From Candidatus Omnitrophota bacterium (GTDB lineage: Bacteria > Omnitrophota > Gorgyraeia > Zapsychrales > Zapsychraceae): 64,000 bases of DNA. This document shows positions 13,848 to 43,962 of this stretch, one piece after another. Every line of letters starts with the position of its first letter. Positions within the stretch are counted from its first letter, which is position 1. Location: NCBI GenBank assembly GCA_021108075.1, contig JAIORP010000158.1, forward strand, positions 5,740 to 69,739, written 5' to 3'. Under the pieces are notes generated by a model. That model was not told the origin of the DNA. It did no database searches and saw only the letters and a list, made by a program, of their open reading frames with translations. Position numbers and translations under genes: made by a program.

Positions 13848-13929
13848 ATACCAAATCCATTAATAAATTGTTCTATCTTAATTCTGAAAAGCAGAATTGA
13901 TTTTGGTCATTGTTTAATGGAATTGGTAT
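13848..13929. repeat. 82-bp MITE/REP-like element, copy 2 (orientation B, inverted relative to copy 1)
   Basis: ataccaaatccattaataaattgttctatcttaattctgaaaagcagaattgattttggtcattgtttaatggaattggtat. Confidence 0.9.
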
Positions 13930-14864: not shown

Positions 14865-14865
14865 G

Positions 14866-19233: not shown

Positions 19234-20468
19234 GCGCGACGGATAAATGTCTGAGGCAAACGCGGTAAAACTGCTAAAAAGATGACAAGGCCATACACCC
19301 CCCGCCTGGCTGAGGCACGTAAAGAAGACAGGTGGTGCTCCCAGCGGTAAGCCGTATAACCGACGAGCAGAATGATACCGACCAAAGACGTAAAATAATT
19401 GGCGCCATATTGGGCGACCTTTTTAACATTCGCTAAGATGGGTGAAGACAAACACAACAGAACCATTAACATTGCCAGGACATAGACCTTTGGGGTCTGA
19501 TCTGTTTGTGCCGTCCTGAGCGCATCCACAAACAATAACAACAGGCACAGACAAAAGACCGGAAACAGGACCGGCATAATCAAAAAAAAGTATTTGATGA
19601 TCCACAACCAACCGCCATGTGATGTTGCGATATTGCCTGGAATCCATTGCTGCAGATTGGGTTGATTATAATAAAAATGGTTATATCCCACGCTCACTTC
19701 AACGTATTCCCAAAAGCTGATGATATTATGCCAGATATGCGGCAACGTTAACCAGATTAAGACAACCACACCGCCAACAGTTAAGAGACCGCAGTCGAAA
19801 GAGATCGCTTGAACATCCCTTTGGATCTTCCTTTCAACACAGTCATCAGACCGCAAAAAATAATGCCAAACAAGCAGGCCAAAGACATAGGGCACATATA
19901 AAGCCGACACGGAAGAAGAAAACAGAGCCGCGCACAAAGCCGCCCCGGAAAGAATTTTCAAGACCCAGCCAACCCGGGTTTGATGGGCGCATAAAAAACA
20001 TAGCACGCTAATAAGAAAAAACATGAGGCCCAGGGGTTGATGTTTCGCGAACAGGATATACAAATAGGGCCAGAAACTGGTCGTAAATAAAAAATAACAC
20101 AACAGGCCGATCGTGTCATTGAAAATGCGCCGGGTAATTTCAAAGACAAGCACGGATGACACGCCCACTGCGGCCGAACAAACCAGAATAAACGGCCTCA
20201 GGGTGGTCTCATCACACATGATTCGCTGGAGCAGCGAGGCTAAATATATAAAAAACTCTTTGCCGTGCAGCCAACGGACGCGAGGTTGATCAAATGATTC
20301 ATGCATCTCTGAAATAAAAGTGAGGTCCTTTAGTCGTACGGCCGCGTCAAAATAATACGCTTTTGTATCGGTCGGCCAGAACTGAATATCCCAAATAAAC
20401 ATAATAATAGTAATATTTATAAGTAACGTAATGGCGATAACAGCCCATGACAATTGTTTGTTATTCAT
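19143..20468 (-). CDS. polytopic membrane protein, possible ArnT/PMT-like GT-C glycosyltransferase
   Basis: 441 aa, about 11 TM helices. The first loop has the acidic motif WPTDTKAYYFDAA, reminiscent of the GT-C DE/DD motif. First gene of the operon. Confidence 0.5.
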   Translation of the reverse strand: MNNKQLSWAVIAITLLINITIIMFIWDIQFWPTDTKAYYFDAAVRLKDLTFISEMHESFDQPRVRWLHGKEFFIYLASLLQRIMCDETTLRPFILVCSAAVGVSSVLVFEITRRIFNDTIGLLCYFLFTTSFWPYLYILFAKHQPLGLMFFLISVLCFLCAHQTRVGWVLKILSGAALCAALFSSSVSALYVPYVFGLLVWHYFLRSDDCVERKIQRDVQAISFDCGLLTVGGVVVLIWLTLPHIWHNIISFWEYVEVSVGYNHFYYNQPNLQQWIPGNIATSHGGWLWIIKYFFLIMPVLFPVFCLCLLLLFVDALRTAQTDQTPKVYVLAMLMVLLCLSSPILANVKKVAQYGANYFTSLVGIILLVGYTAYRWEHHLSSLRASARRGVYGLVIFLAVLPRLPQTFIRRAWRPHLYPGKFRNWGLKSFTPIPNIRTNCI

Positions 20469-26694: not shown

Positions 26695-27225
26695 TTACGG
26701 TCTTTTCGGCATAAACTCACCAGGACCGCTTTTGTGCACACCATGAAATCTTCCGCTTTTCCCCATCATTTTCCCGGCTTTATCATGAAATTTCCGGAAT
26801 TGTTCCGGGGTTAAAATCTCGCGCAATTGAAGAATTCCTTCTAAACGGTGATCCGCCATCTCATTCTCAAGAACTTTAATCTGATCATGAAGACCATAGA
26901 CCTTTGCTGTATCAATTTCTGCCTTTTCCAGTTCCGTCTTTAGCTTATCCCGAAAATCCATCATCTTCTCCATATATTCTTTAATCTGACCCCTGTGACT
27001 GCCTCGATGTTTTTCAAGTTTTTGCTGTTGTTCTTCTGTTACGCCAAGATCTTCTCTCATTTTTTTTCTCATTTTCTCTTTTCGCTCCCGCATATGCTCG
27101 ATCATTTCCACTTCCTCCGGGGCTAAATCCTCAAATTCTTGTGCGAATGCATAACCAGAACTTCCCAAGATTCCAACCAGGGTAATCATTGCGACGGCTT
27201 GTAATGTTTTTTTCATCACGCTCAC
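26695..27225 (-). CDS. periplasmic LTXXQ-motif (Spy/CpxP-like) protein
   Basis: Signal peptide, helical charged protein with LTPEQFRKFHD (LTXXQ). Downstream of the ECF sigma/anti-sigma pair. Confidence 0.65.
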   Translation of the reverse strand: MSVMKKTLQAVAMITLVGILGSSGYAFAQEFEDLAPEEVEMIEHMRERKEKMRKKMREDLGVTEEQQQKLEKHRGSHRGQIKEYMEKMMDFRDKLKTELEKAEIDTAKVYGLHDQIKVLENEMADHRLEGILQLREILTPEQFRKFHDKAGKMMGKSGRFHGVHKSGPGEFMPKRP

Positions 27226-27289
27226 TCCTTTTTAAAATTTTTATTATCGTTACCAACTTAGATCCTTTTACGAAAATAAAGTTCCAGAA

Positions 27290-27829
27290 CTAAAGAAAAT
27301 ATTGCTCTACGGATGTGCCATAATCCGTAGTGTCTTCTTCATTGAAATAATACGCTAGATATTCGTCTTGATCAGCTGTTTCTTTCGACGCTACAAGCAC
27401 TTCTTGCTTGATTTGGTTTTGATCCTGCCCTTGATTTTGGTTCACTAAATAGGGTTGTTTCACACTAGCACTTAAGAGAAAAAACAGCACGACTAAGACC
27501 GCAAAAACCCCCCAAACAAAAACAGGTTCAGGGAAAAATATTATTTTCTTCCATCGCTCAATAAGACCAAACTCTTGTTGACACTCCGGTGTATCCTTTT
27601 TTTCATTTTGAATGTCTTCTTGTAACCTCGCCCAAACAACAGCCCTCGATCGATCATATTTTTTAGCCTTCATGAAAGGTTCAACCGTTGTTTGTTGTGC
27701 CAAAACAAAAAACTCTTTGCAATCTCTACAGGATGCAAGATGACTTTCTAATAGACCTTTCTTACCTTGATGTATTTCTCCATCTAAATAATCTGTGAGT
27801 ATCAACTCTTGAATCTCTTTACAATTCAT
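27290..27829 (-). CDS. zf-HC2-type anti-sigma factor (single TM)
   Basis: MNCKEIQELILTDYLDGE...HLASCRDCKEF zinc-finger anti-sigma N-terminus plus one TM (VFVWGVFAVLVVLFFLL). Overlaps the sigma gene stop. Confidence 0.65.
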   Translation of the reverse strand: MNCKEIQELILTDYLDGEIHQGKKGLLESHLASCRDCKEFFVLAQQTTVEPFMKAKKYDRSRAVVWARLQEDIQNEKKDTPECQQEFGLIERWKKIIFFPEPVFVWGVFAVLVVLFFLLSASVKQPYLVNQNQGQDQNQIKQEVLVASKETADQDEYLAYYFNEEDTTDYGTSVEQYFL

Positions 27830-28379
27830 GCGGGGCCGCCTCTCTTCTCAATGCAAGCATAGCTTCTCTTGCTCTTTTTATTCTTGAACGCACTGTATTA
27901 ATGGGAATTCTTAAGGTATCCGCGATCTCCTTGTAGCTCAAACCTTGTATACTTCGCAAAACAATACATGTTCTTTGCTCCAAATATAAATGACCTAACA
28001 ATTTATGGATCACTTTCTCATTCTCTTCTTCATCGATTCTGTCTCGAATGTCTTTCATAGGAGCGGCTATGGGATTCGTTTCATCGTATTCAACCACGCC
28101 TTTTATCTGCTTGCTTTTTTTTTGAGAATATTTTAAAGCACAATTGATTGTTATTCGATAAATCCATGTTTTAAGCGAAGACTGTTGACGAAAAGCGCTT
28201 ATTTTCCTATAAACGGTCATAAAGACTTCCTGGCATATCTCTTCCGCTTCTTCTCTCTTGCTAACAATACGAAAAGCAACATTGAAAACAAAACCAAAGT
28301 ATTCCCTGTAAATTGATTCAAAAGCACGTTCATCTCCCTGAATCGCCTGTTGTACTATGTCATCTGTCATATTTCGCAT
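27819..28379 (-). CDS. ECF-family RNA polymerase sigma-70 factor
   Basis: Sigma-70 region 2 (FESIYREYFGFVFNVAFRIV...) and region 4 HTH (GLSYKEIADTLRIPINTVRSRIKRAR). Confidence 0.85.
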   Translation of the reverse strand: MRNMTDDIVQQAIQGDERAFESIYREYFGFVFNVAFRIVSKREEAEEICQEVFMTVYRKISAFRQQSSLKTWIYRITINCALKYSQKKSKQIKGVVEYDETNPIAAPMKDIRDRIDEEENEKVIHKLLGHLYLEQRTCIVLRSIQGLSYKEIADTLRIPINTVRSRIKRAREAMLALRREAAPHEL

Positions 28380-31018: not shown

Positions 31019-31966
31019 TTATTCGAACCGTTTCATTTTATAATAGATCCCCTCATCAACGATATAAAAAAATAATGTTTTTTTCTGGTATGGCTTGAAG
31101 GAAAATATATCTGTCTGGATATCTGGAAGTTTGGAAAGATCCAGCTCCTTTTGCTGCATCTCGAATTGCAGCATGATCTCCGCCAGATAGACCTTTGATG
31201 GAGAAAAGTTGGGGTTCGCCCGCAAACTGTCCTTCAAGAACGTCACACCCTTTTCATATGCTTTTAACTCCAGACATGCCAGGGCCGCCAGATAATAAAA
31301 GACCTCTTGTTTGTCAGGGACTTTCCCGGCACCGATGACAGCGGCACGCAATAGCGAATGAAAATCATTCCGCGCAGCATAACTGCTCATAAGATATAGA
31401 TAACCATCGACATATGCCTTCTGAAGCATCAGCGGCATATTGTCCGGATCAACCGGCAGATATTCATTCTGCTGATTGATCGACGTCAATTTCCCCCCTC
31501 GCTGAAAGATATCATTGCACCGCAGATCAACATTTCCTTTGAAATACGATATGGCACTCTGGTAATCTTTCTGTTCATACGCCAGTACCCCTAAATTATA
31601 ATTGATACCAAAAGCATCCTTTTTTTGCTGATACGCCCGCTCAAACATTTTATGGGCGAGCTCCGGTTCGTCTAAGGCCACATAACACCAGCCCATGTTG
31701 TTGTAGCTGATCGGGGCTTGATCAAAAATTTTAATAATACAGGAGTAATAACGTAATGCTGCCCTTAAACGTCTTTGCTGAAAAGGAGCCTGCCCCATAA
31801 CAGAATGATTCAAGTACATCATTTCTGAGTTCAAATGATCCAATGTTCGAAAGACAATCCGGTTGTGGTCCAGCAAAAAAACGCACAGCAATAAAAGCGC
31901 GCCATAGATGCTGACATACCGCCCCAGTATAAGCCCCATCATTTTTTTCAGGCTGCTTATTTTCAT
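31019..31966 (-). CDS. membrane-anchored TPR-repeat protein (module 2)
   Basis: N-terminal TM plus TPRs. Paralog of 13929-14864 and 34234-35193 (GINYNLGVLAYEQKDYQSAISYF). Starts 1 nt after the YfhO-like stop. Confidence 0.8.
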   Translation of the reverse strand: MKISSLKKMMGLILGRYVSIYGALLLLCVFLLDHNRIVFRTLDHLNSEMMYLNHSVMGQAPFQQRRLRAALRYYSCIIKIFDQAPISYNNMGWCYVALDEPELAHKMFERAYQQKKDAFGINYNLGVLAYEQKDYQSAISYFKGNVDLRCNDIFQRGGKLTSINQQNEYLPVDPDNMPLMLQKAYVDGYLYLMSSYAARNDFHSLLRAAVIGAGKVPDKQEVFYYLAALACLELKAYEKGVTFLKDSLRANPNFSPSKVYLAEIMLQFEMQQKELDLSKLPDIQTDIFSFKPYQKKTLFFYIVDEGIYYKMKRFE

Positions 31967-34198
31967 TTAATGGAACACTCCCCGGCTTTTCCCGTTCAGT
32001 CCACGCCCGAACATCTTCTTGAGTCTAATGAAATAACAACTGATCAGCAAAAGAAAAAATGCTAAAAAATATATCATCAACAATTTATAAAAGGTTTCCA
32101 TCAAGCGGCTTTCATAACGAAGACGCAACCGATGCTTTCCAGCCGGGACCCAAACACCTTTAAAAGCCACATTCGCCCGATAAATGGTTTCCGGCTTTCC
32201 GTCCACGGTTAAATGCCATTTGCGGTGATAACTGTCATTATAAACGAATAATTGTGGAAAAGGCACATCCAACAACAGTTCGATTTCGTTTAAATCAAAA
32301 CGGCGGACAGTCAAAGTTTGACCATCGGCCAAGATGACCCGTGGAGGCTTTAACGGCGCGGGCGGTCCCGCCTTTGTCATTTCAGTTTGATCATCCCCAC
32401 AAACAACAAGGGCTTTCTTCGACCGCAAGGATAAGACCTCAGCTATATGCTGTTTATCATCAAAGGTTTCATCAACGCATTGAAAATCATCATATAAAAT
32501 AAATTTATTTTTAACGTAGGACTGCAATAACTCCCTGGGCATCTGTTCATGCAGGAAGTACGACCATCTCATCCCATAGTAATTCTCCTTGAAAAATCCT
32601 GACGTATCCTGCAGGGCCCCAAAGGCTTCATAGGGTTTTAACACTTCCCTTTGATAATCCGGCCTTTCAAATACAAATACCGGAGGGTCATCGTTGGTCC
32701 AGTTATCTTGCTGACTGTCTGTGAATTTATAATGCGCGGTGTTTTGCCTAAAGGATTGAAAGACACTGACAGGCTGTATCATAATGATAATAAAAAATCC
32801 GGCCATCAAGCCGTAACGTACGATTGGTTTTGAATGGTAACGCCCCCACAGGATTAAGAATATGACATTGAGCAATAAACTTAAGTAAGAAATGAAACCC
32901 ACATTCCGGATTTGATAAAAAAACACTCCCAACGCAGAATGTATCACAATGAGCAGCAGACCGATTATTTTTTTGGACTTCTGTTGTGGGAATGAGTACA
33001 TCCACCAGGCTAAGACGTCAACAAAGAATAACAGTGCGGCCAACCAGGCAAACCAGACGAGATAGTGCAAATTCCGAAAATACCTGAAGAAAAATATATA
33101 TTTAAATAAAAACAGAAACAACGGCGTAAAATCCGCAAGGCTGATAAGGAAAATCAAGAAAGCAATGGATATAAAAATCAATCCCTTCTTCCGGACAGGA
33201 ACGATCAGGCCACAGGCTAAAATCAACCAAAAAAATAAAGGAGCATAAAAAAGACCTAAATCCATCCCATCTAAATCGGCCCACAACCCTCTGATACTGT
33301 TCGGTCCGATCAGACTGCTCAGGCTGATGGTCGCTAAAGTCATCTCCAGGGGGTCATCCCCCGCTGTCCGCCAGTTCACGACATAATCCCCATTCCGGGC
33401 TTCCAAAAACCAACGGAAGCCCGGCAACAAAGATAACAGGATAGAAACAATGGCCAGCGCAAAAATGATCTTATTTTTTCCGGCGAATGTCCTCAATTCT
33501 TTCAAACAAAGCCCGACGCGCCGGGGGTAGAACGCGCACAAACAAACCAGAATGATCCCCAGGCTGGTCAAGAAATGAAAAGGCATATAAGTCACATTTA
33601 TGATCATCATCGCCAAGGTCAGCCCGAGCCAATCAACAATTTTAAACTCCTTAAAAAAAGACACAAAAAAATAATAAAACCATATCGCGGGAACAATGAT
33701 CAGCACCAGCAAACAATCGTTAAAAATATTGCTGCCCAAATTAGACAATAACACGAGACAGAACGCGCAATAAGCCAACCAGAACTTCTTATACAAACAC
33801 TTCACCAAAAAGTAAAAACCAAAGGCGCCCAAAATAAAATAGAAGAGATAAAAGCAAGCGTATGCCGTAGAAAAATTCGCGCCCACGCCCCGCATCAGAC
33901 TGATGATATAGGTCAATGGGTTGCACTCTCCGATCATGCGCACGCCAAAATCATCTGGTCTGCCCCAGGCATGATAGGGATCCCATAAAGGATACACCCA
34001 ACGGCCGATATGATGAAAAAAATACTCCGTATAACGGTAACAGACCTGGGCATCAACGATAAGTTTGATGTGACCTTTTATTAAATGGGAGATTGAATGC
34101 AGCCATATAAAGACCGGAAGGATAAAAAGAAAAAGATAAGCAGCTGACCGGATGAACACATCGAATAACGAAAAATTTTGATTATTATTTTTTGGCAT
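31967..34198 (-). CDS. YfhO-family GT-C membrane glycosyltransferase-like protein (module 2)
   Basis: 743 aa. N-terminal YPLWDPYHAWGRP motif, multi-TM core, C-terminal YNDSYHRKWHLTVDGK...AFKGVWVPAGKH block. Paralogous to 14866-17049 and 35190-37451. Confidence 0.7.
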   Translation of the reverse strand: MPKNNNQNFSLFDVFIRSAAYLFLFILPVFIWLHSISHLIKGHIKLIVDAQVCYRYTEYFFHHIGRWVYPLWDPYHAWGRPDDFGVRMIGECNPLTYIISLMRGVGANFSTAYACFYLFYFILGAFGFYFLVKCLYKKFWLAYCAFCLVLLSNLGSNIFNDCLLVLIIVPAIWFYYFFVSFFKEFKIVDWLGLTLAMMIINVTYMPFHFLTSLGIILVCLCAFYPRRVGLCLKELRTFAGKNKIIFALAIVSILLSLLPGFRWFLEARNGDYVVNWRTAGDDPLEMTLATISLSSLIGPNSIRGLWADLDGMDLGLFYAPLFFWLILACGLIVPVRKKGLIFISIAFLIFLISLADFTPLFLFLFKYIFFFRYFRNLHYLVWFAWLAALLFFVDVLAWWMYSFPQQKSKKIIGLLLIVIHSALGVFFYQIRNVGFISYLSLLLNVIFLILWGRYHSKPIVRYGLMAGFFIIIMIQPVSVFQSFRQNTAHYKFTDSQQDNWTNDDPPVFVFERPDYQREVLKPYEAFGALQDTSGFFKENYYGMRWSYFLHEQMPRELLQSYVKNKFILYDDFQCVDETFDDKQHIAEVLSLRSKKALVVCGDDQTEMTKAGPPAPLKPPRVILADGQTLTVRRFDLNEIELLLDVPFPQLFVYNDSYHRKWHLTVDGKPETIYRANVAFKGVWVPAGKHRLRLRYESRLMETFYKLLMIYFLAFFLLLISCYFIRLKKMFGRGLNGKSRGVFH

Positions 34199-34233
34199 GG
34201 GATTTGATGACGGTATTCATCTTATACAAGCAA

Positions 34234-35193
34234 TCAATATGGTGCCAGATCGATGTTATGGTATTTTTCAACGCGAGAGCCAACGCTCTGTTGATGTATT
34301 TTCGACTGTTCTAAAAAATTATGGGCCACCTGCGGTTTACCGACGGCCTGCATGATCAGGCTGGAGTAATACAATGCTTCATAATGATACGGATCATATC
34401 TTAGGGCTGTACGAAAAGATTGTAGCGCCAATTTATAACTCTTCACTTTATATTGAGCGAGTCCCAGATAAAAATGAAAGAACGCGTAATCATCGATATC
34501 TTCCCGCAGGGCCGAATTCGCGTAACCGACCATCTCTGAAATCTCATCCATCGCATATAAACTCATAACAACAACCTTGTAATCATTTTCATAGCCGAAC
34601 CTCATCTGGGCCAAAACATATTCAGGGCTTAAATGCGCACCGGATATCAAAAAAGGAACATATATCCGCCTGGAATTTAACGTGTAACGTAAGGTCTCCC
34701 TTTTCTTTGCGTCCAGGGCCTTGACCATAAATTGAAAAGCAGCAGGATATTCTTTCGATTTAAAATGAATAACACCCAAATTATAATTGAACCAAAAGAA
34801 ATCCGGTTTTAAATCACTTGCTTTGTTATACAACTTTTTCGATTCGCCGACCTGCCCTTGCAGATAACGGCAGTAGGCCAACATACCATATGAGTCAGGC
34901 CGGTTGGGCAAGGCTTCAATGATTTCTTCCAGATAGTGAACGTAACGATCCAGCTCTTTGGGCTCAGGGGTTTCTTTTGATTCAGTCGCACGCACGAGCA
35001 ACTCCCAGCTTGCGGGCATAAGCCGGCTTAAAGTAACCAGCTTGGCTTTTAAAACGACATAGTCCCACGGGATAAAAGTCTTTGAGATCACATAAAAAAG
35101 GAGGCAAAGCACAATCACGCGATTGAACACAAAATTGATCCATTGACGTCCACCGGAGAAACATTTTTTCTGTTTAAATGGTTGTTTTGTCAT
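34234..35193 (-). CDS. membrane-anchored TPR-repeat protein (module 1)
   Basis: N-terminal TM plus TPRs (LKPDFFWFNYNLGVIHF). Its ATG overlaps the YfhO-like stop (ATGA), which indicates translational coupling. Confidence 0.8.
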   Translation of the reverse strand: MTKQPFKQKKCFSGGRQWINFVFNRVIVLCLLFYVISKTFIPWDYVVLKAKLVTLSRLMPASWELLVRATESKETPEPKELDRYVHYLEEIIEALPNRPDSYGMLAYCRYLQGQVGESKKLYNKASDLKPDFFWFNYNLGVIHFKSKEYPAAFQFMVKALDAKKRETLRYTLNSRRIYVPFLISGAHLSPEYVLAQMRFGYENDYKVVVMSLYAMDEISEMVGYANSALREDIDDYAFFHFYLGLAQYKVKSYKLALQSFRTALRYDPYHYEALYYSSLIMQAVGKPQVAHNFLEQSKIHQQSVGSRVEKYHNIDLAPY

Positions 35194-37451
35194 TGTGCTG
35201 TCACCGCTCTGTTTCTATTCATGAACGCTCTCCACCCATAAAAAAGAACAGCCAGAAAGACCGCGTAAAAAATCAGCATGAATAGCACTTTCAAATAATA
35301 CTGAAACATCGTGTTGAACCGGAAGGTAATTTCATGTTCTCCCGCCGGAACAAACAGTCCCTTAAAAGCGATGTTGGCGATATCAATGCCGACAGGATTA
35401 TTGTCGATGGCGGCGTTCCACAGGGGATGAAAGCTGTCATTGTAGACCAAATATTTATCAATATCATAATGCATGTGTACTGTGACCTGATTGCTGTCAT
35501 AGGAAACAACTTTAAAGCTCGAGCTTGATTCGGACACATACTCAGGCTGTCCTTGAATATCCTGAATGTTGCGGACCCTGGTAACACCACGATCCGAATA
35601 ATAGGAGAAATAATTCTCCGGTAAAGGCTGAATGAAGGCGACGTTCTTATTGCCACGCAACGAAACCGTTAAGTCATCATAGTGAAAATCTTTTTCGACC
35701 ACCTTAACCTGATCATATACGATAAATCGGTAATAAATATAATTTTTCAGGACCGGGTACGGGATGTGCGATAATAACTGCTGATAGCCTTTTGAGGCGT
35801 AATATATCTGGGGCCCCCCGATCTCAAGCTGCTCCTGCTTTAAAGAATCCAGCAGAACCTTGCGCCCGCGCGTATATTGAAAATCGTGCGACAAGTTATC
35901 ATATTTCGAGATGTCATAACCCAGAGGGATATTATTTTTTAAATAAGAAAAGACTTCTAATGGCTGGACGACGAGGGACAAAAAAAGCAATACCCAGCAC
36001 AGTCCATTCAGTTTCTGATTGATTGCCCCGTTCTTTTGGGATGAAAAAAAACTAATAATAAAGTAAGCCAGACTCAGGACGATAACGAAGTAGGTTGAGT
36101 TGATATTATAGGGTTGTTTCACATGGACGAACAAAACAAGGCCATGCACCAAGACGGCAAACAAGACATAAACCACCGTATTAATTTTTTTCTTTTTTAT
36201 GGCGTGCTGATACTGATCAAAAATCTCGGTTAAAAACAGGATCGCGACAGGAGATAAAATGATCCAAAGAAAAAAATGAAGGTTCTTAAAATATTTAAAG
36301 AAGAAGACCCGCGAATAGAACCAATCATACAATGGAATCCGTGGAAAATAGACGAGAAACAATCCCATACCCCAAAAACAAAAAAACAAAAGACGTTTTG
36401 ATATCTTATTGAACAAACCCATAGCAAAAATTATGAACGCGAATAATGGAAGGTACAATACCGCGTAAGTAAAACGCTTCAAATTATTAAAGTACTGGAC
36501 ATACACGATGTCTTCCATAATACCCCAGTCCTTGATGGCGACTTTATTCACTTCGAAAATATGTTTCGCGTTCTGGGCTGAAGGGCGGCCCGGCAAGACA
36601 AAATGTGAGAGGCTGGATTGTTTATAAAATAACCACCCCGGCAACAACGATAGGCCAAAACAGACGAGAACGATGACAATCAGAATTTTATGTTTTTTTA
36701 AAAAACATCCAAAAACAAAGACAAAACGCAACATTTTCTTAGGGGAAAAAATAATCATAAGAAGAAAAAATGAAATGGCAATGCTGATGAAATAAAACGG
36801 GATATATGTTCCCATTAAAATCATGCTGGTCAGTAATATCCCCAATATGTCGCGGATGATCCGATCGCAGTCCTCGTTTAAACCCGGCGATTGTCTTTCT
36901 TCACTCAAAGCCTGAAATATGTCCAGAAAGAAATAAAAAAACCAAATCATCGGGACAAACATCAAATGCAGATAGGAATCAAACATGCGTGTCGTTAAAG
37001 AAGAAAAAAGAAACAGACAAAAAGCTGTAAAGGCGCTCTTTCTGTAATGAAAAATCCTTCTGGCCAACAAATAAAATCCATATGCCCCTAAAAAATTGTA
37101 AAACACACAAAACAAGATATACCCTATGCGGTATGGGAGACCCATCTTCGCGCTTAAGATCAAAAAAAAGTATGCCGGATTAAATTCGTTGAAACGCCTT
37201 AAAAAAAACTCATTGTTAACCCCACAGTTCCAGTTGGGGTCCCAAAGCGGGATCACATTCCGGGCCAAAGATTCAACGAAATATTTTGTATGTTCGTAAT
37301 AAGAGATAGCGTCGCTGGCAACGGGAATTTTCCCGAATAAAAAACCTTTAAACACAAACATCCACATTAAAAAAGAAATCACGATAAAAAAACAGATGAT
37401 TTTCTCTTCACTCTGAAAGACGTTACTGATCCATGTCCGTAAATTTTTCAT
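35190..37451 (-). CDS. YfhO-family GT-C membrane glycosyltransferase-like protein (module 1)
   Basis: 753 aa. SDAISYYEHTKYF...IPLWDPNWNCGVNNEFF N-terminal motif and YNDSFHPLWNAAIDNNPV...AFKGLFVPAGEH C-terminal motif. Confidence 0.7.
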   Translation of the reverse strand: MKNLRTWISNVFQSEEKIICFFIVISFLMWMFVFKGFLFGKIPVASDAISYYEHTKYFVESLARNVIPLWDPNWNCGVNNEFFLRRFNEFNPAYFFLILSAKMGLPYRIGYILFCVFYNFLGAYGFYLLARRIFHYRKSAFTAFCLFLFSSLTTRMFDSYLHLMFVPMIWFFYFFLDIFQALSEERQSPGLNEDCDRIIRDILGILLTSMILMGTYIPFYFISIAISFFLLMIIFSPKKMLRFVFVFGCFLKKHKILIVIVLVCFGLSLLPGWLFYKQSSLSHFVLPGRPSAQNAKHIFEVNKVAIKDWGIMEDIVYVQYFNNLKRFTYAVLYLPLFAFIIFAMGLFNKISKRLLFFCFWGMGLFLVYFPRIPLYDWFYSRVFFFKYFKNLHFFLWIILSPVAILFLTEIFDQYQHAIKKKKINTVVYVLFAVLVHGLVLFVHVKQPYNINSTYFVIVLSLAYFIISFFSSQKNGAINQKLNGLCWVLLFLSLVVQPLEVFSYLKNNIPLGYDISKYDNLSHDFQYTRGRKVLLDSLKQEQLEIGGPQIYYASKGYQQLLSHIPYPVLKNYIYYRFIVYDQVKVVEKDFHYDDLTVSLRGNKNVAFIQPLPENYFSYYSDRGVTRVRNIQDIQGQPEYVSESSSSFKVVSYDSNQVTVHMHYDIDKYLVYNDSFHPLWNAAIDNNPVGIDIANIAFKGLFVPAGEHEITFRFNTMFQYYLKVLFMLIFYAVFLAVLFYGWRAFMNRNRAVTAQ

Positions 37452-37465
37452 TAAAAAATAACCAT

Positions 37466-39574
37466 TTAATGTGATTGAACCCCTTGCTTTTCCCGAATAA
37501 GCTGAACGGCCATGATTTTAACAATAGCATTCGGACGAGCGGCTCTTATTATAAATCGATATTCATGATACGCGACAGGATGGAGCAAAGGGTACAAACG
37601 GTCAAACCCATTCTTGTGATGAGAAATCTCACGTTTGACATCCAAATTTTTCCATTCTCTATCCTGGTAGCGGCCTTGCAATGTCCATTGGAAAGGCACT
37701 CTCTGTCCATCCCGGTTAAAACCGGATCCGATCAGTCGATAACCATACAGATCTTGGGCTAAATGTTTTGATTCGATTCGAAATTCCTGTTCTCCCCGGA
37801 TATACCAAAAAGGAAATTTTTTTTCGGGTTGAGTTCGATGCTGTTGTTCAAAGACCAAAAACGGCGCCGCATCCAATCCTTCCCGATGAACGGTTATAAG
37901 GCTTTGCGCGTCACTGCCCCCTGCCTCGAGATACACCCGGCCATCCTGAACCGCGCTTGGAGTAAATGAATACCGCACATCATTGAGATCAATGACTTTA
38001 GTAAATTTGTCGTAATATATCGCATCCCCGGGTTCGATAAAAGAAATATCTTGAGAAAATTCAGACTTCGACTCCATAATGACAGCAAAAAGCGGACGGA
38101 CATGATTCACGGAGGTCAGCATATATCCAAACTCAAATGGAAAGGCCTTGCGGACTAAAGCCGTGCCGACCGGGATTCCTTTAACAACCACGCGTTTCAT
38201 CTCTGCGGGGATTCCGGCTGTCATCTGACTTTTCAGATATCGCCATTCCAGGTAATAATTTTGTGCGACCGCCGTCATATGCCTCATTGTTACGACGCTG
38301 TAAAGCACGACCAATGCCACGCCATAAACCTTCAGCCCGCTTAAACAATCACGTTTATTTTGATCCAATTTATTCCACAGCCAAAAATGCAACACAACCC
38401 CTAGCGCGGTGGTCGGCCATAAAACCCTGAAACCCAAAACAGAAAAACACTGTTGGGCTATAATCATCGGACTGATGATCAATAAAGACAGGATCAGAAA
38501 CATAACAAACTTTTCTAAAACAAAAAACCAGGATGTGGTCTCGTTCTTATCTAAACGAGCCGCCCGATTGAATAAGCAGACCAACGGCGTAAAAACAATG
38601 ATCAGCCTTAACACAACACCAAAAGAGGGCCGCAACAGATACCAGATATGACTGATGGACAACAGCACAATTTCTTTGACCAGTCCCCACTTGCTCCAAA
38701 TATCTTTCACCAATCCCATAGAATAAACAGACCCCGCGGGGGCGGAGTATTCCAAATGCTGGCTGGCGATCGGATAGATACACTGCCGGTCTATGATCCG
38801 GTAAATCACCATGCCCGCAGAAAAAAAGATCACATCATTGATAAAAACTTTCCGTTGATCCTGTCTTTGTGACGATTTAAATGACAAAATATTTATAACC
38901 GTTAAAACAAAAACAAACAGCGCGGTTAAGGGATAAATCAATAAACTGCACTGGAAGAATATAAACGACAACACAATCCAGGCGTACTCAGAAAGACTTC
39001 GCCTTTCCCAGAGCCATTTCAATCCACGCCCTCTTTCCCAAAGGAAGTAACAAAGAAAGGCAAAGACAGCATTAAAAGGTCCACAAAAGAAATTCGCGAC
39101 CCAGATGACGTTAATTTGCTGCGGGGCGGAAAAGATCAAGCTAAATCCAGCCAGTACCGCCCAAAACGGGTCCAGAAAACGGCGCTTGATCATGAATCGG
39201 ATAAAAACGGTCATGGCGATATAAATAAAGAAAAAACATGCAAACCTTCCCCACGCTAAGGCGTTCAAACTGTTCATCCCCCACGCTAAGACGCTCACAC
39301 ATACCGCCCCTAAAGCACGTCCAACCATAAGAATGTGCACGGACTCAAAAAAACCCAGCCACTCAAAGGATTTGACAGATAACAAGGCTGCATCATTGTG
39401 ATAGGCGAAAGGGGTGATGAAAACTGGCAGATAGACAAGAAAACTAACGCAGGTTAAGGCCCAAAAGAGACATTGACTGTTACCCCATCCATAAAAAAAA
39501 TTTTGGTAAGACTTATTTATTTTTTCTTTTAAAAACTGGATCATATATAAAACATTTATTGATACCAATTCCAT
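37466..39574 (-). CDS. large polytopic membrane protein with a C-terminal soluble domain, possible GT-C-like
   Basis: 702 aa, at least 12 TM helices, then a ~250-aa hydrophilic domain. No sequence similarity to the YfhO paralogs. The annotated ATG lies inside MITE copy 3, and an alternative start is at about 39544. Confidence 0.55.
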   Translation of the reverse strand: MELVSINVLYMIQFLKEKINKSYQNFFYGWGNSQCLFWALTCVSFLVYLPVFITPFAYHNDAALLSVKSFEWLGFFESVHILMVGRALGAVCVSVLAWGMNSLNALAWGRFACFFFIYIAMTVFIRFMIKRRFLDPFWAVLAGFSLIFSAPQQINVIWVANFFCGPFNAVFAFLCYFLWERGRGLKWLWERRSLSEYAWIVLSFIFFQCSLLIYPLTALFVFVLTVINILSFKSSQRQDQRKVFINDVIFFSAGMVIYRIIDRQCIYPIASQHLEYSAPAGSVYSMGLVKDIWSKWGLVKEIVLLSISHIWYLLRPSFGVVLRLIIVFTPLVCLFNRAARLDKNETTSWFFVLEKFVMFLILSLLIISPMIIAQQCFSVLGFRVLWPTTALGVVLHFWLWNKLDQNKRDCLSGLKVYGVALVVLYSVVTMRHMTAVAQNYYLEWRYLKSQMTAGIPAEMKRVVVKGIPVGTALVRKAFPFEFGYMLTSVNHVRPLFAVIMESKSEFSQDISFIEPGDAIYYDKFTKVIDLNDVRYSFTPSAVQDGRVYLEAGGSDAQSLITVHREGLDAAPFLVFEQQHRTQPEKKFPFWYIRGEQEFRIESKHLAQDLYGYRLIGSGFNRDGQRVPFQWTLQGRYQDREWKNLDVKREISHHKNGFDRLYPLLHPVAYHEYRFIIRAARPNAIVKIMAVQLIREKQGVQSH

Positions 39575-39643
39575 TAAATAATGACCAAAACCAATTCTGC
39601 TTTTCAGAATTAAGATAGAACAATTTATTAATGGATTTGGTAT
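39562..39643. repeat. 82-bp MITE/REP-like element, copy 3 (orientation A)
   Basis: ataccaattccattaaataatgaccaaaaccaattctgcttttcagaattaagatagaacaatttattaatggatttggtat. Confidence 0.9.
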
Positions 39644-39670
39644 GATTACAAATATCGACCGTGTCTATTT

Positions 39671-39754
39671 ATACCCATTCCGATTCTGCTTTTCCCGACG
39701 CTTAAGCAAAAATATCAGAATTGAAATAAAACAATTAACTAATAAATTTGGTAT
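39671..39754. repeat. degenerate, deleted copy of the 104-bp insertion variant of the element
   Basis: atacccattccgattctgcttttcccgacgcttaagcaaaaatatcagaattgaaataaaacaattaactaataaatttggtat. Shares the extra segment (cgacg.tt.agc.a.aatat) seen in the 62190-62293 copy. Confidence 0.65.
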
Positions 39755-40812
39755 TACCATTTAAAAGTAATACTGGTTCTCTCACAGCGTGAACAAACAG
39801 AAACCGCTCCCCGCCCTTTTTCATTCAATAGCATACGCATTTTCTGCGCGGAATGTCCATTCCAAATTTCTAATAAATTTGTTACACCAATCTTAAACGT
39901 CCCATAACGGGTTGTATCGCTCCAAACAGCACATTCGCAGCAGGCTAAAATATCGCCATTCCAATCCAATTGCATGGCCTTCCATATCCAATCGCACGAC
40001 CCCTTTAACGGCAGAACGGCCTGACTCAATGCCGGCTCCTGATCCTCTAATCCTCCTTTGGGATTACCGGGCCGAACATTTAACATAATTCCTAATGGGC
40101 GACAAAAGTCCTGGACCAACTTCAATTCATGCTGATTGTAATTATAGAGGATATAGTCAATCATAATGACGGTGCCGAAACGCCCTTTTTTATTTTTCTC
40201 CACCAATAAACGGATATTTGATTTAATCTTTTCAATATCACCATGCCGGACCTGAACATTATAAATATCTTTCGAAAATCCGCTTATGGCTATCTTTACA
40301 AAATCTAATCCCGCGTCCAATAATTCTTCGATCTTCCGCTCTGTTAATAATGAGCCATTGGTCGCGATCATGGTTGCCACACCTTGATCGGTTGCGGATT
40401 GGATGACCCGAGCCAAGTCCTTGTATATAAGCGGTTCCCCATTGGTGTATAAAACGGCTATAAGCAAATAATCCTTTAATTGCCGAATGATATCTAAGGC
40501 CATCTCAAGCGGCATTTTTCCTTTAGGGATTGTTCCCGTCCGACCTTTAGGATTCACATCAGGAATCACTCCTCTGGCATCACGGCAAAACAAACAATTC
40601 GCATTGCACTCATTGGATAAGTCCAGACTCAACATGTAGGGACCTTGCGCGGAGATCGGATTTTTTCTCCAATAAGCGAAATAACAATCCAACATATTTC
40701 TTATTTTGCGGATATTAATTTTCTTCTGCTGAATAACCCGCTGTAAAATTTTGAGGTGAAGTAAGATGTATTGATTGCGCATAGATATTTTTTTGGGGCT
40801 GTGAGAACCCAT
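39754..40812 (-). CDS. radical SAM/SPASM-domain protein
   Basis: LSLDLSNECNANCLFCRD (CxxxCxxC) and a C-terminal Cys-rich SPASM-like region (CDWIW...ILACCECAVW...CSRC). The real start is probably the internal M at about 40695, which avoids overlap with the upstream GT2 gene. Confidence 0.8.
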   Translation of the reverse strand: MGSHSPKKISMRNQYILLHLKILQRVIQQKKINIRKIRNMLDCYFAYWRKNPISAQGPYMLSLDLSNECNANCLFCRDARGVIPDVNPKGRTGTIPKGKMPLEMALDIIRQLKDYLLIAVLYTNGEPLIYKDLARVIQSATDQGVATMIATNGSLLTERKIEELLDAGLDFVKIAISGFSKDIYNVQVRHGDIEKIKSNIRLLVEKNKKGRFGTVIMIDYILYNYNQHELKLVQDFCRPLGIMLNVRPGNPKGGLEDQEPALSQAVLPLKGSCDWIWKAMQLDWNGDILACCECAVWSDTTRYGTFKIGVTNLLEIWNGHSAQKMRMLLNEKGRGAVSVCSRCERTSITFKW

Positions 40813-41752
40813 AGGTATTGTTTACAATGAATTTGGGGCGGTTCTTTGTTTCGTCATAAACCGCACCCAAGTAAAGTCCGATGATCCCCGTACAAAAAAG
40901 CTGAACACTCCCGATAAAAATAACAGCCATCATAATCGCCGTCCAACCTGGGATCGCTTTGCCCTGAAATTTCTCTAAAAGAACATGCCCGAGCAACACA
41001 AAACTGAATAAGATCGAAACAAAACCAATGGCGGAAGCTATTTGAAGGGGAACCGTGGAGAAAGAGACCACCGCGGATTCAAAAAAGTTGCGAATAACAT
41101 CAAAACTAAATATCTTGAATTTCGTCTCACCACCATAACGCGCGTGCCGTTCATACGGCACAAACGTCTGTTTAAAACCGATCCAGCAGACTAAACCACG
41201 AACAAACGGTCTTTTTTCTTTTAATTGAGTCACCTGGTCCGCAGCCCGGCGTGTTAAAAGCTTAAAATCCCCGGCCTCAACAGGCAAATGGATATCCGTG
41301 ATTTTATTGAGAATAAGATAACCGATCCTGGTGATAAACAACTTCACGCGCGATTCACCTTTCCGTAACGTGCGGACCGTGTGGATCACTTCCAAAGAAC
41401 GGTCTTTTTGCCAGATATCAATAAGTTTTGGAATTAACTCCGGAGGATCCTGCAAGTCGGCGTCCATATAAAGAACGAGGTCTCCTTGCGCAAATTCCAA
41501 GCCGGCTAATATCGAGGCCGCGACACCAAAACGCCGTGATAAGTTGACAACTCGAATATCACGATACAGTTTATCTTTCTCCATCAACAACTCGAAAGAC
41601 CGGTCGGTTGAAGCGTCGTTGACAAAAACAAGTTCATAGCCGTCAATCGCTCCGCGTTTAACTTCACGTCGCATCACAGAACGAACCCGTCTTAACAATT
41701 CGGGAAGAACTTGCTCCTCATTTCTAAAGGAGAACACAACAGACAATAGCAT
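40715..41752 (-). CDS. GtrB/ArnC/DPM1-like polyprenyl-phosphate glycosyltransferase (GT2) with C-terminal TM helices
   Basis: LSVVFSFRNEE, FVNDASTDRS and YMDADLQDPPE (DxD) are GT2 motifs. Two C-terminal TM helices are typical of Und-P-sugar synthases that feed GT-C enzymes. Confidence 0.85.
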   Translation of the reverse strand: MLLSVVFSFRNEEQVLPELLRRVRSVMRREVKRGAIDGYELVFVNDASTDRSFELLMEKDKLYRDIRVVNLSRRFGVAASILAGLEFAQGDLVLYMDADLQDPPELIPKLIDIWQKDRSLEVIHTVRTLRKGESRVKLFITRIGYLILNKITDIHLPVEAGDFKLLTRRAADQVTQLKEKRPFVRGLVCWIGFKQTFVPYERHARYGGETKFKIFSFDVIRNFFESAVVSFSTVPLQIASAIGFVSILFSFVLLGHVLLEKFQGKAIPGWTAIMMAVIFIGSVQLFCTGIIGLYLGAVYDETKNRPKFIVNNTYGFSQPQKNIYAQSIHLTSPQNFTAGYSAEEN

Positions 41753-41876: not shown

Positions 41877-42968
41877 TCATTCCAGCTCTTCTTTTCCGAA
41901 TTCCCGATTTAAATAACACCACTCCTCGTCATCCATTTCCCATTCGCTGTATACGGCAAGCCCACGATAATTTTCTGGTAAGGACTCAAACCGCAGCAAC
42001 CCCGCGTGTATCCCGAATAAAGCGTTCTGGATGTTTTCCACTTTGGGTGAATGATATAAGACCGTCGCATCATCATAAACAGGCACACCCAGGAGTATTT
42101 CTGTTCCCTGCCCCCAGGTTAAAACATCCCTGGTCCAAGCACTCATCACTTTTTGGTAAACCTTCTGCAAACGTATGGCGCTGTCATACATCATAACGGC
42201 AATTTGGTCAGCATGTTGCGCCACCTGCTGATAGTATTTCCGCCCCCAATGGACCCTGGGAAAAGGATGCCACTTTGTCGGAGGAGGATAAGCGGCGATC
42301 GACAATATCTTGTCCCGCGGCATCGCCTGCCGGAGTTCTTGAAGCAGATCCAAAAAATCAGTATCGCCGGAAATCATCGGCTCAATATTCACTTGCACAC
42401 CAGCCAGACGAGGGTGGCGCGCGAACAGATCAAGGATGGATGCGATGAAACGGGAACGCCATTCACGCGAGTCGATAAAGCAATGCGTGCCCACAATACC
42501 GCCAACCCAAGGGATGACCTTCAAATCACTTAACTGATCTAGAAAAATTTCCGTGTTAGGTTCATCGTGACGGGCAATCTTGCCATCCGGCTGGCACGGA
42601 CAGACATGAGGAAAAACATATTTTATGCCATGAAAACGCAATTTACTGGCCAACCGCGCCATTTGGCGAGCATCACGAAATCTTGATTTGTCTCTCTTGT
42701 TGCGCTGAAACCAATCATCATCTCCCATCCAACCATGCTGCAACCATATGGCATTCGTACGCAGGTCATGCCGGCCGTCACGGACAAGCCGGCCCGGATG
42801 CCACGCGGCATAAGCAAATACCAACATGATCATGGTCAACAAAATGAATGCCGCCATCAACACTCTTTTTGACCGGTTCATTTGAGAATAAAATTTTAAC
42901 ATCCTTGACGAAGTCCTCGCGCAACAATCCATCCTGAGGTGAAAACGAGCACATAATACCAAATCCAT
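41877..42968 (-). CDS. membrane-anchored protein with a putative glycoside-hydrolase-like TIM-barrel domain
   Basis: Probable start at MNRSKRVLMAAFILLTMIMLVFAYAAW (signal anchor). The soluble domain has alternating beta/alpha character. Family assignment is tentative. Confidence 0.4.
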   Translation of the reverse strand: MDLVLCARFHLRMDCCARTSSRMLKFYSQMNRSKRVLMAAFILLTMIMLVFAYAAWHPGRLVRDGRHDLRTNAIWLQHGWMGDDDWFQRNKRDKSRFRDARQMARLASKLRFHGIKYVFPHVCPCQPDGKIARHDEPNTEIFLDQLSDLKVIPWVGGIVGTHCFIDSREWRSRFIASILDLFARHPRLAGVQVNIEPMISGDTDFLDLLQELRQAMPRDKILSIAAYPPPTKWHPFPRVHWGRKYYQQVAQHADQIAVMMYDSAIRLQKVYQKVMSAWTRDVLTWGQGTEILLGVPVYDDATVLYHSPKVENIQNALFGIHAGLLRFESLPENYRGLAVYSEWEMDDEEWCYLNREFGKEELE

Positions 42969-43059: not shown

Positions 43060-43962
43060 TTAATAAAACGAAGCCGAAATACTGTCAAATAATTCTTTCG
43101 ATTCAAAAACTTGACTTCTTGGATTGTCTACTATGACCAATTTTTTGCGATCATATTCAACAATAAAATGACGCCAATAAAATTCAATCTCAGACAATTC
43201 TTTACGAAAAGAGGCCTCTAAATAAGAGTTATAGCCATCCAATGTGTTTTCTTTTAACTGCTCTAAATATGCTCTTAACTTTCCCCTTTTATGCAAAAAG
43301 AGGATGACGAGACGAACCTCATTCTTTGTTAATTGATCGACAGGCTTTGTAACAATGTCACTTAATTTAATCCCCGCTATGCCCCCACGGTTCATAAGTT
43401 CTTGCGTACGGATGGGACTATGATAGCCGACATTCAAGACGAGCTGCCCATCATCTTCATAGACATAAATCATCTCAAAAAAAGATGCCAGGCCCATGAC
43501 GAACCAGGGGGGTGCGCTTCTAAAGCGACCTGCCATCAAAGGCTGCATGACAATATAAGCAACCGTTCCGATATCAGCCTCTTCATGCGTTATCAACGCT
43601 CTTAAATCATATACGTATTCCCCCCCATCAGAAGGAATTCCATCTAACTCCTGACGAATGAACGATCGAAATTCTTCTCTGTCAGATAAGACATAAAAAT
43701 CAAGCGGATCGACGATATCCGTCTCAAAATAATGATTTTTAATAAAAGGCACAAACGCATCCGCGAACGCAGCAAATTCCGGAACAACCTGAATCTTCTT
43801 GTTATAGTAAAATGTGAAATGCTTCGATTGGTAGCTATTATCAAAATATGCCGCAGGATTAAAATTCCTGCGCTTGTGTTCTTTAACAGAAAGATAATAC
43901 ATTCCCATTAAAATAATGATGCCGGCCAGAACAATCCGTGAATAAAACTTGTCTGAATCCAT
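43060..43962 (-). CDS. membrane-anchored hypothetical protein
   Basis: N-terminal TM (IVLAGIIILMGMYYL), then a ~270-aa soluble domain. No motif recognised. Confidence 0.45.
   Translation of the reverse strand: MDSDKFYSRIVLAGIIILMGMYYLSVKEHKRRNFNPAAYFDNSYQSKHFTFYYNKKIQVVPEFAAFADAFVPFIKNHYFETDIVDPLDFYVLSDREEFRSFIRQELDGIPSDGGEYVYDLRALITHEEADIGTVAYIVMQPLMAGRFRSAPPWFVMGLASFFEMIYVYEDDGQLVLNVGYHSPIRTQELMNRGGIAGIKLSDIVTKPVDQLTKNEVRLVILFLHKRGKLRAYLEQLKENTLDGYNSYLEASFRKELSEIEFYWRHFIVEYDRKKLVIVDNPRSQVFESKELFDSISASFY

Follow-up and report, generated by a model that had tools for sequence, protein, structure and literature searches.

A composite locus of Omnitrophota that brings together YfhO-like GT-C proteins with dedicated TPR partners and a GtrB-type glycosyltransferase with a BtrN-like radical SAM enzyme, a candidate system for periplasmic glycosylation

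The 64,000-nucleotide stretch of a Candidatus Omnitrophota bacterium analysed here (contig JAIORP010000158.1; the whole stretch is called the window) carries on its minus strand seven genes that code for a GtrB-type glycosyltransferase of family GT2, a radical S-adenosylmethionine enzyme (rSAM), a 702-aa membrane protein, and two YfhO-like membrane proteins of the GT-C fold, each followed by the gene of a protein with tetratricopeptide repeats (TPRs; Table 1). The locus is composite and probably serves the periplasmic, lipid-carrier-dependent glycosylation of several acceptors in a diderm bacterium of the Omnitrophota through two independently conserved units, namely the pair formed by the GT2 and the rSAM (Unit A) and the module formed by a YfhO-like GT-C and its TPR protein (Unit B). 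The strongest result concerns the TPR genes, which are conserved together with the YfhO-like GT-Cs as their dedicated partners and co-evolve with them. What is new here is the obligatory, separately encoded, and co-evolving TPR subunit of this YfhO-like clade, its multiplicity per genome, and the pairing of a GT2 with a BtrN-like rSAM. Direct outcomes of the computations are the assignments to folds and families, the two linkages between genes, the fusions, the co-evolution, and the membrane topology.

The pairing of the YfhO-like and TPR genes was assessed by scanning one genome per species of the Genome Taxonomy Database with family-specific motifs, which yielded 79 loci, nearly all labelled as Omnitrophota or 'uncultured Planctomycetales' metagenome-assembled genomes (MAGs), and 75 YfhO-like genes followed by a sufficient stretch of sequence. 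In 73 of these 75 cases, the very next gene downstream codes for a TPR protein, at an apparent spacing of around -8 to +10 nt; in one of the two exceptions the TPR gene is located upstream, and in the other an MBOAT gene follows. Counted from the side of the repeats, 73 of the 93 TPR-like open reading frames (ORFs) in the 79 loci stand directly downstream of a YfhO-like gene, far beyond chance. A preliminary description of this DNA had proposed dedicated TPR partners, and the co-conservation of the two genes bears this out. Moreover, the two parts are fused into a single ORF in two loci (L038, 1075 aa; L067, 1137 aa), with the TPRs placed after the GT-C part and two transmembrane (TM) helices at the joint, from which a periplasmic position of the fused repeats is predicted; these natural fusions strengthen the analogy with the TMTC proteins that had been drawn before. 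In the literature searched, whose coverage leaves most subscription journals outside, the pairing of YfhO with a TPR protein has no description.

The window itself contains a third module (13929-17049), located 14 kb from the operon, which shows that the pair is a recurring cassette, and tandem double modules are present in L004, L017, L019, and L071, while many MAGs carry two to four modules. Both ~315-aa proteins of the operon match several TPR Pfam families, with about 3-5 recognisable TPRs in ~310 aa, and are related to each other beyond generic repeat similarity (20% identity over 212 aa, E 2e-12). One N-terminal hydrophobic segment is found in 71 of the 75 TPR partners, and in the window it forms a single TM helix at residues 19-37 of the first TPR protein, 13-31 of the second, and 10-28 of the third, with a K/R-rich N-terminal flank in all three; because of this anchor and its flank, the TPR domain is predicted to lie in the periplasm, where the catalytic loop and beta-sandwich of the GT-C are also placed. 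The pairwise distances among the GT-Cs correlate with those among their TPR partners (Mantel r 0.779; the highest value among 2000 permutations was 0.144). Specifically, the module of paralogue 2 has the first module of L004 as its nearest relative in both distance matrices and, since all three window modules are more similar to modules of other genomes than to one another, they represent old paralogous types. It is plausible that the paralogous modules serve distinct acceptors. Two loci deserve mention on their own account. At positions 3777-7018 of L166 (GCA_030688425.1), beside a YfhO-like and TPR module, the gene of a 758-aa GT-C matching PMT_2 converges with that of another, 322-aa TPR protein, and the pairing of GT-Cs and TPRs may thus extend beyond the YfhO-like clade. 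L066 (JBLINE010000004.1) is a YfhO-like and TPR locus in a MAG labelled Lysobacterales, either by mis-binning or as a rare case outside Omnitrophota.

The membrane partners of the TPR proteins are best described, on homology and a structural model, as YfhO-like proteins with a predicted GT-C fold that make up a divergent, Omnitrophota-wide clade and are not YfhO by the Pfam criterion. Aligned from end to end, the 753-aa protein and the 743-aa one are 27% identical (E 9e-72), so that the paralogy previously noted for them, as for the two TPR proteins, is sustained. The 753-aa protein has no Pfam match, the 743-aa protein matches the last ~50 positions of the YfhO profile (PF09586) with 24.8 bits, and the 727-aa protein of the third module matches it weakly at its C-terminus with 21.7 bits, both below the gathering score of 28.5. 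The 155 homologues of the 753-aa protein are about 30-38% identical to it and about half of them have a precomputed YfhO match; their named source organisms are Omnitrophota, and there is one hydrothermal-vent metagenome. Across the family, 42 of 50 members match YfhO weakly at E<0.01, with a best E-value of 4.9e-9. The AlphaFold2 model of the 753-aa protein, built on the homologue alignment, reaches a pLDDT of 88.6 and a pTM of 0.91, and its Foldseek matches in the PDB are GT-C enzymes at all ranks from 1 to 16 (STT3, ArnT, PglB, AglB, and AftD; probability 1.0, E from 5.6e-4). Hydropathy assigns 13, 13, and 12 TM segments, the terminal one included, to the three window proteins, and paralogue 1 shows the overall YfhO-type architecture of 13 predicted TM segments with a periplasmic beta-sandwich and a final TM. 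An aspartate, D47, is invariant in 50 sequences and stands in the first periplasmic loop, 11-14 residues past TM1 (residues 18-36, after a K/R-rich N-terminus); it is followed by a conserved PLWDP motif, with P68 and W70 invariant. We infer by position, not by superposition, that D47 sits where the catalytic residues of GT-Cs lie. The earlier label of YfhO-like GT-Cs therefore stands as regards the fold and the first-loop aspartate, but not as regards the Pfam YfhO threshold.

In place of an acceptor-selecting role, the TPR protein could act as a structural or scaffold subunit that stabilises or oligomerises the GT-C or tethers it to peptidoglycan, the outer membrane, or an export machine, with glycans or lipids (lipopolysaccharide, capsule, peptidoglycan) as the acceptors, a substantial possibility that nonetheless falls short of being probable. 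TPR domains have scaffold-type roles in BcsC, PgaA, AlgK, and PelB. The TPR partners match envelope scaffolds of the PilW, PrsT, FlcA, and GltE types, all far below the cut-offs, while the neighbours in related loci are of a polysaccharide type (MBOAT, carbamoyltransferase, DegT, methyltransferases, and other glycosyltransferases) and the sister GT-C of 702 aa bears a carbohydrate-binding module. Conversely, divergence is faster among the TPR partners, with a mean identity of 25%, than among the GT-Cs, with 34%, and yet the two co-evolve, which fits a specificity determinant better than a generic scaffold. In TMTC, the nearest architectural analogue, the TPRs themselves select the substrate. 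TMTC O-mannosylates specific classes of proteins, such as cadherins (PMC7801869, PMC11292533), and enzymes of the YfhO family are known to glycosylate proteins (PMC11092751).

The GT2 of Unit A is, by sequence, a polyprenyl-phosphate glycosyltransferase of the GtrB/ArnC type, whose superfamily and architecture are established. It matches Pfam Glycos_transf_2 with 92.6 bits (cut-off 23.3) and consists of an N-terminal GT-A domain, with DAD at residues 97-99, and two C-terminal TM helices, seen as hydrophobic segments at 227-245 and 267-285 in a hydropathy scan. In a sequence search of the PDB, residues 3-317 align to residues 28-333 of Synechocystis GtrB (5EKP, E 1.2e-68) and residues 3-313 to ArnC (~1e-31), and dolichol-phosphate mannose synthase follows at 1e-14; since these matches run over the full length and include the C-terminal membrane helices, they identify the protein as a polyprenyl-phosphate glycosyltransferase, in keeping with its first description as GtrB-like and as a member of a polyprenyl-phosphate clade. 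The NCBIfam models of PgfS (E 2.7e-69, 233.7 bits) and ArnC (E 5e-35, 121 bits) also match over the full length, below their equivalog cut-offs of 500 and 529, respectively.

The link between this GT2 and the rSAM recurs across genomes. The context of the rSAM was surveyed in 80 metagenomic loci, with counts made on the 40 that have at least 1.2 kb on both sides: a GT2 orthologous to that of the window (E 1e-82 to 1e-136) adjoins the rSAM in 23 of these 40 loci and lies within 6 kb of it in 33, and a GT2 of ~313-348 aa stands directly before the rSAM in all four neighbourhoods inspected. The GT2 is by far the commonest neighbour of the rSAM and the only consistently linked gene; the others include B12-binding radical SAM enzymes (19 of 74 loci), nucleoside diphosphate-sugar epimerases/dehydratases (8), and DedA/VTT proteins (4). 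The large membrane proteins found beside the GT2-rSAM pair include three GT-Cs matching PMT_2, two YfhO proteins above the threshold, and 702-like proteins in three loci (L084, L088, and L128). No description of a radical SAM enzyme together with GtrB, a polyprenyl carrier, or a GT-C was found in the literature searched, as the preliminary description had held for the combination of GtrB and rSAM. As for the less frequent neighbours, DedA/VTT-domain membrane proteins form a cluster in 4 loci and lie directly beside GT2-rSAM pairs in L085 (8183-9019) and L133 (11083-11820); this family contains undecaprenyl-phosphate translocases, and its members could provide the absent step of carrier-lipid handling. 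A second recurring pair near the rSAM, sometimes present twice in a locus, consists of a small GT2 (~220-240 aa) and a B12-binding radical SAM enzyme (~495 aa), as in L085 (9016-11270), L083 (5508-7004), and one further locus.

The 702-aa protein, previously entered as an unknown membrane protein, proves to combine a GT-C fold with a CBM32-like domain. An exhaustive HMMER search recovered 161 relatives and a word-indexed homology search one weak match; the family keeps an HNDY...GR motif just after TM1. The model of the protein has a pLDDT of 90.9 and its membrane domain resembles solved GT-C enzymes in fold. Pfam GtrII (PF14264) is matched weakly by 4 of 48 homologues (best E-value 5.9e-5) and not by the window protein itself, F5/8 type C is matched by 15 of the 48, and the family profile matches 7NSN, a GH92 mannosidase, in its CBM32-like module (E 5e-28). 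On these grounds, the protein is read as a third, predicted GT-C transferase with an appended lectin-like domain, and because of this domain a glycan acceptor is suggested. The possibility that it is a third YfhO-like paralogue was ruled out by a profile-profile probability of 6% and the lack of any sequence relationship.

The preliminary description had taken all seven genes as a single system, a view that the wider sample does not sustain: a GtrB-like GT2 lies within 10 kb of the YfhO-like genes in 5 of 76 related loci, no homologue of the rSAM or of the 702-aa protein is near them in any of the 76, and the rSAM is tied to the GT2 instead. In GCA_030688425.1, a single contig holds the GT2, rSAM, methyltransferase, and 702-like genes, in this order, at 683-698 kb and a YfhO-like and TPR module at 268-287 kb, more than 400 kb apart. 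Since the two units are rarely linked elsewhere and are so distant in this genome, the seven-gene arrangement is a lineage-specific juxtaposition of two conserved units. The same data would agree with an adjacency that is merely incidental, in which the YfhO-like and TPR modules are independent of the product of the GT2 and the rSAM, might act like oligosaccharyltransferases by en bloc transfer from undecaprenyl pyrophosphate, and leave the 702-aa GT-C as the only true client of Unit A. Besides the scarcity of linkage, the presence of 702-like genes beside the GT2-rSAM pair in three loci speaks for this alternative, and so do the top Foldseek matches of the YfhO-like model (STT3, PglB, and AglB), all oligosaccharyltransferases, enzymes that use lipid-pyrophosphate-linked oligosaccharides. 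It is, however, rather unlikely: the window genes are packed on one strand with gaps of 14 nt and 35 nt around the first YfhO-like module, distant YfhO-like GT-Cs adjoin GT2-rSAM pairs in 6 loci, and canonical YfhO proteins use undecaprenyl-phosphate-linked monosaccharides from GtrB/CsbB-type enzymes whose genes often lie in another part of the genome, for which reason the missing linkage is not evidence against dependence. Still, as a GtrB-like GT2 is so rarely near them, the donor of the YfhO-like modules may differ.

The rSAM matches Pfam Radical_SAM with 68.2 bits and Pfam SPASM with 36.4 bits (cut-off 21.5), and its family is well conserved (about 110 clusters, 40-63% identical). The CX3CX2C cluster motif (C29, C33, and C36) is invariant, and only five more cysteines are invariant across the family (C233, C251, C252, C300, and C303); the protein ends 9 residues past its CX2C and does not contain the full seven-cysteine SPASM motif (CX9-15GX4C ... 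CX2CX5CX3C ... C). Its best match in the PDB is BtrN (E 7.6e-13), in two stretches that cover the core and the auxiliary domain, and its auxiliary cysteines align with the single-cluster Twitch domain of BtrN, where four BtrN cysteines, which we take to be its cluster-binding ones, match invariant cysteines of the family. The radical SAM and SPASM assignment made at the outset is thus upheld at the level of the Pfam matches, but a full SPASM domain gives way to the BtrN-like, single-cluster Twitch type. The next solved relatives are the sugar-modifying enzymes BlsE and DesII, and we conclude from sequence comparison that the rSAM is probably a sugar-modifying enzyme that works with the GT2, before or after the attachment of the sugar to the lipid. 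As to the extent of the protein, the homologue alignment is conserved from residue 12 and shows that the long ORF of 352 aa is the right one, whereas the public gene call of 293 aa (L001, 6817-7698) is N-terminally short, as the homologues keep ~45 further basic residues at the N-terminus, an extension that may form a membrane-associating helix. The gene consequently runs into the non-conserved 3' tail of the GT2 gene, with an overlap of 68-98 nt. That the rSAM is instead the maturase of a ribosomally synthesised and post-translationally modified peptide, which the GT2 and the GT-Cs would glycosylate or export, is highly improbable in spite of the SPASM match and a weak NCBIfam similarity to WgkB (6.4e-13), StsB (8.1e-11), and PqqE (6.5e-11), because the five auxiliary cysteines are arranged as in the Twitch domain of BtrN, a small-molecule enzyme, the nearest solved relatives modify sugars, the consistently linked gene is the GtrB-type GT2 and not a small ORF, a peptidase, or an ABC exporter, and no credible small ORF for a precursor peptide lies in the intergenic regions that flank the rSAM gene. 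This reading was rejected on the last ground, and across 74 rSAM loci no recurrent cluster of small ORFs appeared in a scan that took ORFs of at least 70 aa only.

Statements about the function of the locus are drawn from sequence, predicted structure, and gene context, and this applies to what the enzymes do, which sugar is involved, what reaction the rSAM carries out and on which substrate, the flipping of the donor, the use of the Unit A donor by the YfhO-like proteins, and the acceptors. In the proposed scheme, the GT2 would load a sugar onto polyprenyl phosphate at the cytoplasmic face and the rSAM would alter this sugar, the likeliest reaction being the radical oxidation of a secondary alcohol or its epimerisation; its substrate could be the nucleotide sugar or the lipid-linked sugar. 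Each YfhO-like GT-C and its own membrane-anchored, periplasmic TPR protein would function together as a single enzyme, a two-protein version of the GT-C and TPR architecture that TMTC has in fused form, with the TPR domain as the part that retains or chooses the acceptor. The 702-aa protein would be the third GT-C transferase of the locus, with a glycan as its acceptor. After the flipping of the donor, these three GT-Cs and a fourth, that of the third module, would decorate different acceptors of the envelope.

Several observations weigh against this scheme. The YfhO matches of the GT-C family span only profile positions ~734-827 of 835, i.e., the C-terminal ~90 positions, which correspond to the C-terminal beta-sandwich and the last TM and not to the TM core; no sequence-level match to a solved GT-C was found in the PDB for the YfhO-like proteins or their family profile; the TM-scores of the Foldseek matches are low (0.26-0.33 by query length, up to 0.44 by target length); and the top structural matches are the oligosaccharyltransferases discussed above. 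Similarly, the Mantel correlation partly reflects common species phylogeny, TPR domains serve as scaffolds in polysaccharide export too, which makes acceptor selection a proposal, the BtrN match of the rSAM is weak and partly due to the common radical SAM core, GtrB-like GT2 genes are seldom near the YfhO-like ones, and the locus contains no GtrA-type flippase, with no Pfam match for the small flanking ORFs. A fuller version of the scheme joins two propositions: that the GT2 and the Twitch-type rSAM make a radically modified polyprenyl-phosphate sugar, which would be for example keto or epimerised, that serves YfhO-like, PMT_2, and GtrII-like GT-Cs alike, and that the YfhO-like and TPR modules are prokaryotic split counterparts of TMTC, each of which recognises different periplasmic or surface proteins through its TPRs. 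That both hold together is doubtful.

All seven ORFs are found on the minus strand at the positions and with the lengths first reported (Table 1). The stop codon of the first YfhO-like gene and the start codon of its TPR gene share the sequence ATGA, and this 4-nt overlap is as previously described, but the second pair, for which 1 nt had been given, has TAA directly followed by ATG, with 0 nt in between; in the third module, 1 nt separates stop and start. The distance from the 702-aa gene to the first YfhO-like gene is 14 nt and that from the first TPR gene to the second YfhO-like gene 35 nt, and a gap of ~180-210 nt lies between the rSAM and the 702-aa genes. The tight spacing on one strand makes it likely that the seven genes are co-expressed in the window, although this is left less certain by the latter gap and by scans for promoters (43 sites vs 35±4 expected) and terminators (26 sites vs 18±4 expected) that are near chance and give no reliable word on operon boundaries. 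The gene order of the window recurs in other samples. A gene of the RDD family starts 36 nt downstream of the second TPR gene and may be the last gene of the transcription unit.

Table 1. Genes of the composite locus, its downstream RDD-family gene, and the third module (positions in the window)
Feature	Position	Strand	Basis or remark
GtrB-type polyprenyl-phosphate glycosyltransferase, GT2, 345 aa	40715..41752	-	Pfam, NCBIfam, PDB 5EKP
BtrN-like radical SAM enzyme with Twitch-type (abridged SPASM) domain, 352 aa	39754..40812	-	start at 40812 or 40782
GT-C-fold membrane protein, 702 aa, distantly GtrII-like, with C-terminal CBM32 / F5-8 type C-like domain	37466..39574	-	
YfhO-like GT-C-fold glycosyltransferase, paralogue 1, 753 aa	35190..37451	-	AlphaFold2 fold, homologues
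TPR partner 1, 319 aa	34234..35193	-	TPR Pfam families
YfhO-like GT-C-fold glycosyltransferase, paralogue 2, 743 aa	31967..34198	-	paralogy, sub-threshold Pfam YfhO
TPR partner 2, 315 aa	31019..31966	-	TPR Pfam families
RDD-family small membrane protein, 204 aa	30368..30982	-	Pfam RDD, 58.7 bits
Third YfhO-like GT-C paralogue, 727 aa	14866..17049	-	31% identical to paralogue 1, E 4e-130
Third TPR partner, 311 aa	13929..14864	-	TPR Pfam families

Other genes of the window lie close to these units. Just upstream of the GT2 gene, on the same strand, are genes for a membrane-anchored GH18-like protein (41877-42968, 47.5 bits) and an unannotated protein of 300 aa that has a hydrophobic segment near its N-terminus (43060-43962). 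Neither these two genes nor the 248-aa and RDD ones have homologues in the related loci, and they are therefore not counted in a conserved system. Downstream of the operon, the minus strand codes for an extracytoplasmic function (ECF) sigma factor, an anti-sigma factor, and an LTXXQ/Metal_resist protein (26695-28379) and, after this group, for an 811-aa surface-type protein with FG-GAP and PKD domains (23836-26271); the former are possibly an envelope-stress module and the latter a candidate surface glycoprotein. Upstream of the third module is the gene of a 441-aa GT-C of the PMT_2 type (19143-20468, minus strand; 30.3 bits vs a cut-off of 26.1), which brings the GT-C-fold genes of the window to five, and unannotated ORFs of 169, 208, and 227 aa lie between the two. 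A 766-aa protein with a spermidine-synthase-like domain at residues 288-445 is encoded at 49193-51493 of the minus strand. Lastly, in related loci, MBOAT O-acyltransferase and carbamoyltransferase genes flank the YfhO-like genes or the GT2-rSAM cluster (L005, 2846-4282; L079, 7917-9749; L084, 12527-14341), a hint that the glycan may be modified further.

Omnitrophota have small cells and often live in association with a host, and the presence of multiple envelope-glycosylation modules in a genome may matter for their surface biology. The GT2-rSAM pair points to a chemistry on lipid-linked donors that has no report in the literature searched and is the likeliest source of new chemistry in the locus; if the proposal is true, this would be the first radical SAM enzyme in a pathway for lipid-linked sugar donors. 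Both units are well defined and amenable to heterologous expression without culturing the organism. YfhO-type GT-Cs form one of the largest functionally dark groups of bacterial proteins (PMC10584680), and a TPR subunit that is obligatory, co-evolves with the GT-C, and is fused to it in some cases offers a testable hypothesis of acceptor selection.

Among known systems, the closest in enzymatic logic are those in which a GtrB, CsbB, or PgfS enzyme supplies a YfhO protein. A diderm Omnitrophota host should lack teichoic acids. CsbB/YfhO of B. subtilis and GtlA/GtlB of Listeria carry out the two-step glycosylation of lipoteichoic acid, whereas streptococcal GtrB/PgtC2 and PgfS/PgfM1 perform protein O-glycosylation at Ser/Thr-rich regions (PMC11092751), so that the two-step logic, described at first as established for teichoic acids, was already known for proteins as well. 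The window resembles these systems in its GT2, which matches PgfS, GtrB, and ArnC over the full length, in its GT-Cs, whose first outer loop holds a conserved acidic residue and whose C-terminus forms a YfhO-like beta-sandwich with a final TM, and in the presence of several GT-C paralogues in one locus, as with PgfM1/PgfM2. It differs from them in that its YfhO-like proteins are below the Pfam threshold and match only the C-terminal ~90 profile positions, that each has a dedicated, membrane-anchored TPR partner for which no YfhO counterpart was found in the literature searched, and that a radical SAM enzyme stands in place of the PgfE epimerase.

The arrangement of one GtrB-type donor synthase followed by GT-Cs is shared with the Gtr clusters (GtrA, GtrB, and a GT-C such as GtrII), and the homologues of the 702-aa protein are weakly GtrII-like; in the ArnC/ArnD/ArnT pathway, ArnD alters the lipid-linked sugar after ArnC, a precedent for a donor-modifying enzyme beside the GT2. 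Unlike the Gtr and Arn systems, the window locus has no flippase of the GtrA or ArnE/F type, its candidate donor-modifying enzyme is an rSAM, and its 702-aa protein carries a CBM32-like domain. With BtrN, a 2-deoxy-scyllo-inosamine dehydrogenase, the rSAM shares an alignable core and Twitch domain (E 7.6e-13) at low identity; BtrN has no conserved partnership with a GT2, and the rSAM family differs further by its basic N-terminal extension of ~45 residues and an extra invariant cysteine, which forms a CC pair.

The YfhO-like clade also recalls component 27, the largest functionally dark cluster of the AlphaFold Database, which the sections covered of Durairaj et al. 2023 (PMC10584680) present as a new YfhO-like GT-C family that is bacterial, about 665 aa long, mostly transmembrane, annotated as uncharacterised YfhO, apart from canonical YfhO in clustering, and structurally nearest to STT3 and PglB. 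The Omnitrophota proteins have the same profile, judged by that description; those sections mention neither a TPR partner nor a gene context. As regards TMTC, full-length bacterial homologues, with a GT-C part and then TPRs, have been noted and are uncharacterised (PMC7801869). The membrane domain of the YfhO-like proteins has no match to Pfam PMT_2 or related families, which makes the likeness to TMTC an architectural analogy and not family membership, and their TPRs, about 3-5 in number, usually form a separate polypeptide with its own anchor helix. On the other hand, the modules share with TMTC1-4 a GT-C membrane domain joined to non-cytoplasmic TPRs, the order of GT-C and then TPR in the two natural fusions, and multiple paralogues per genome, and the two-gene module suggests that a TMTC-like solution arose independently in bacteria.

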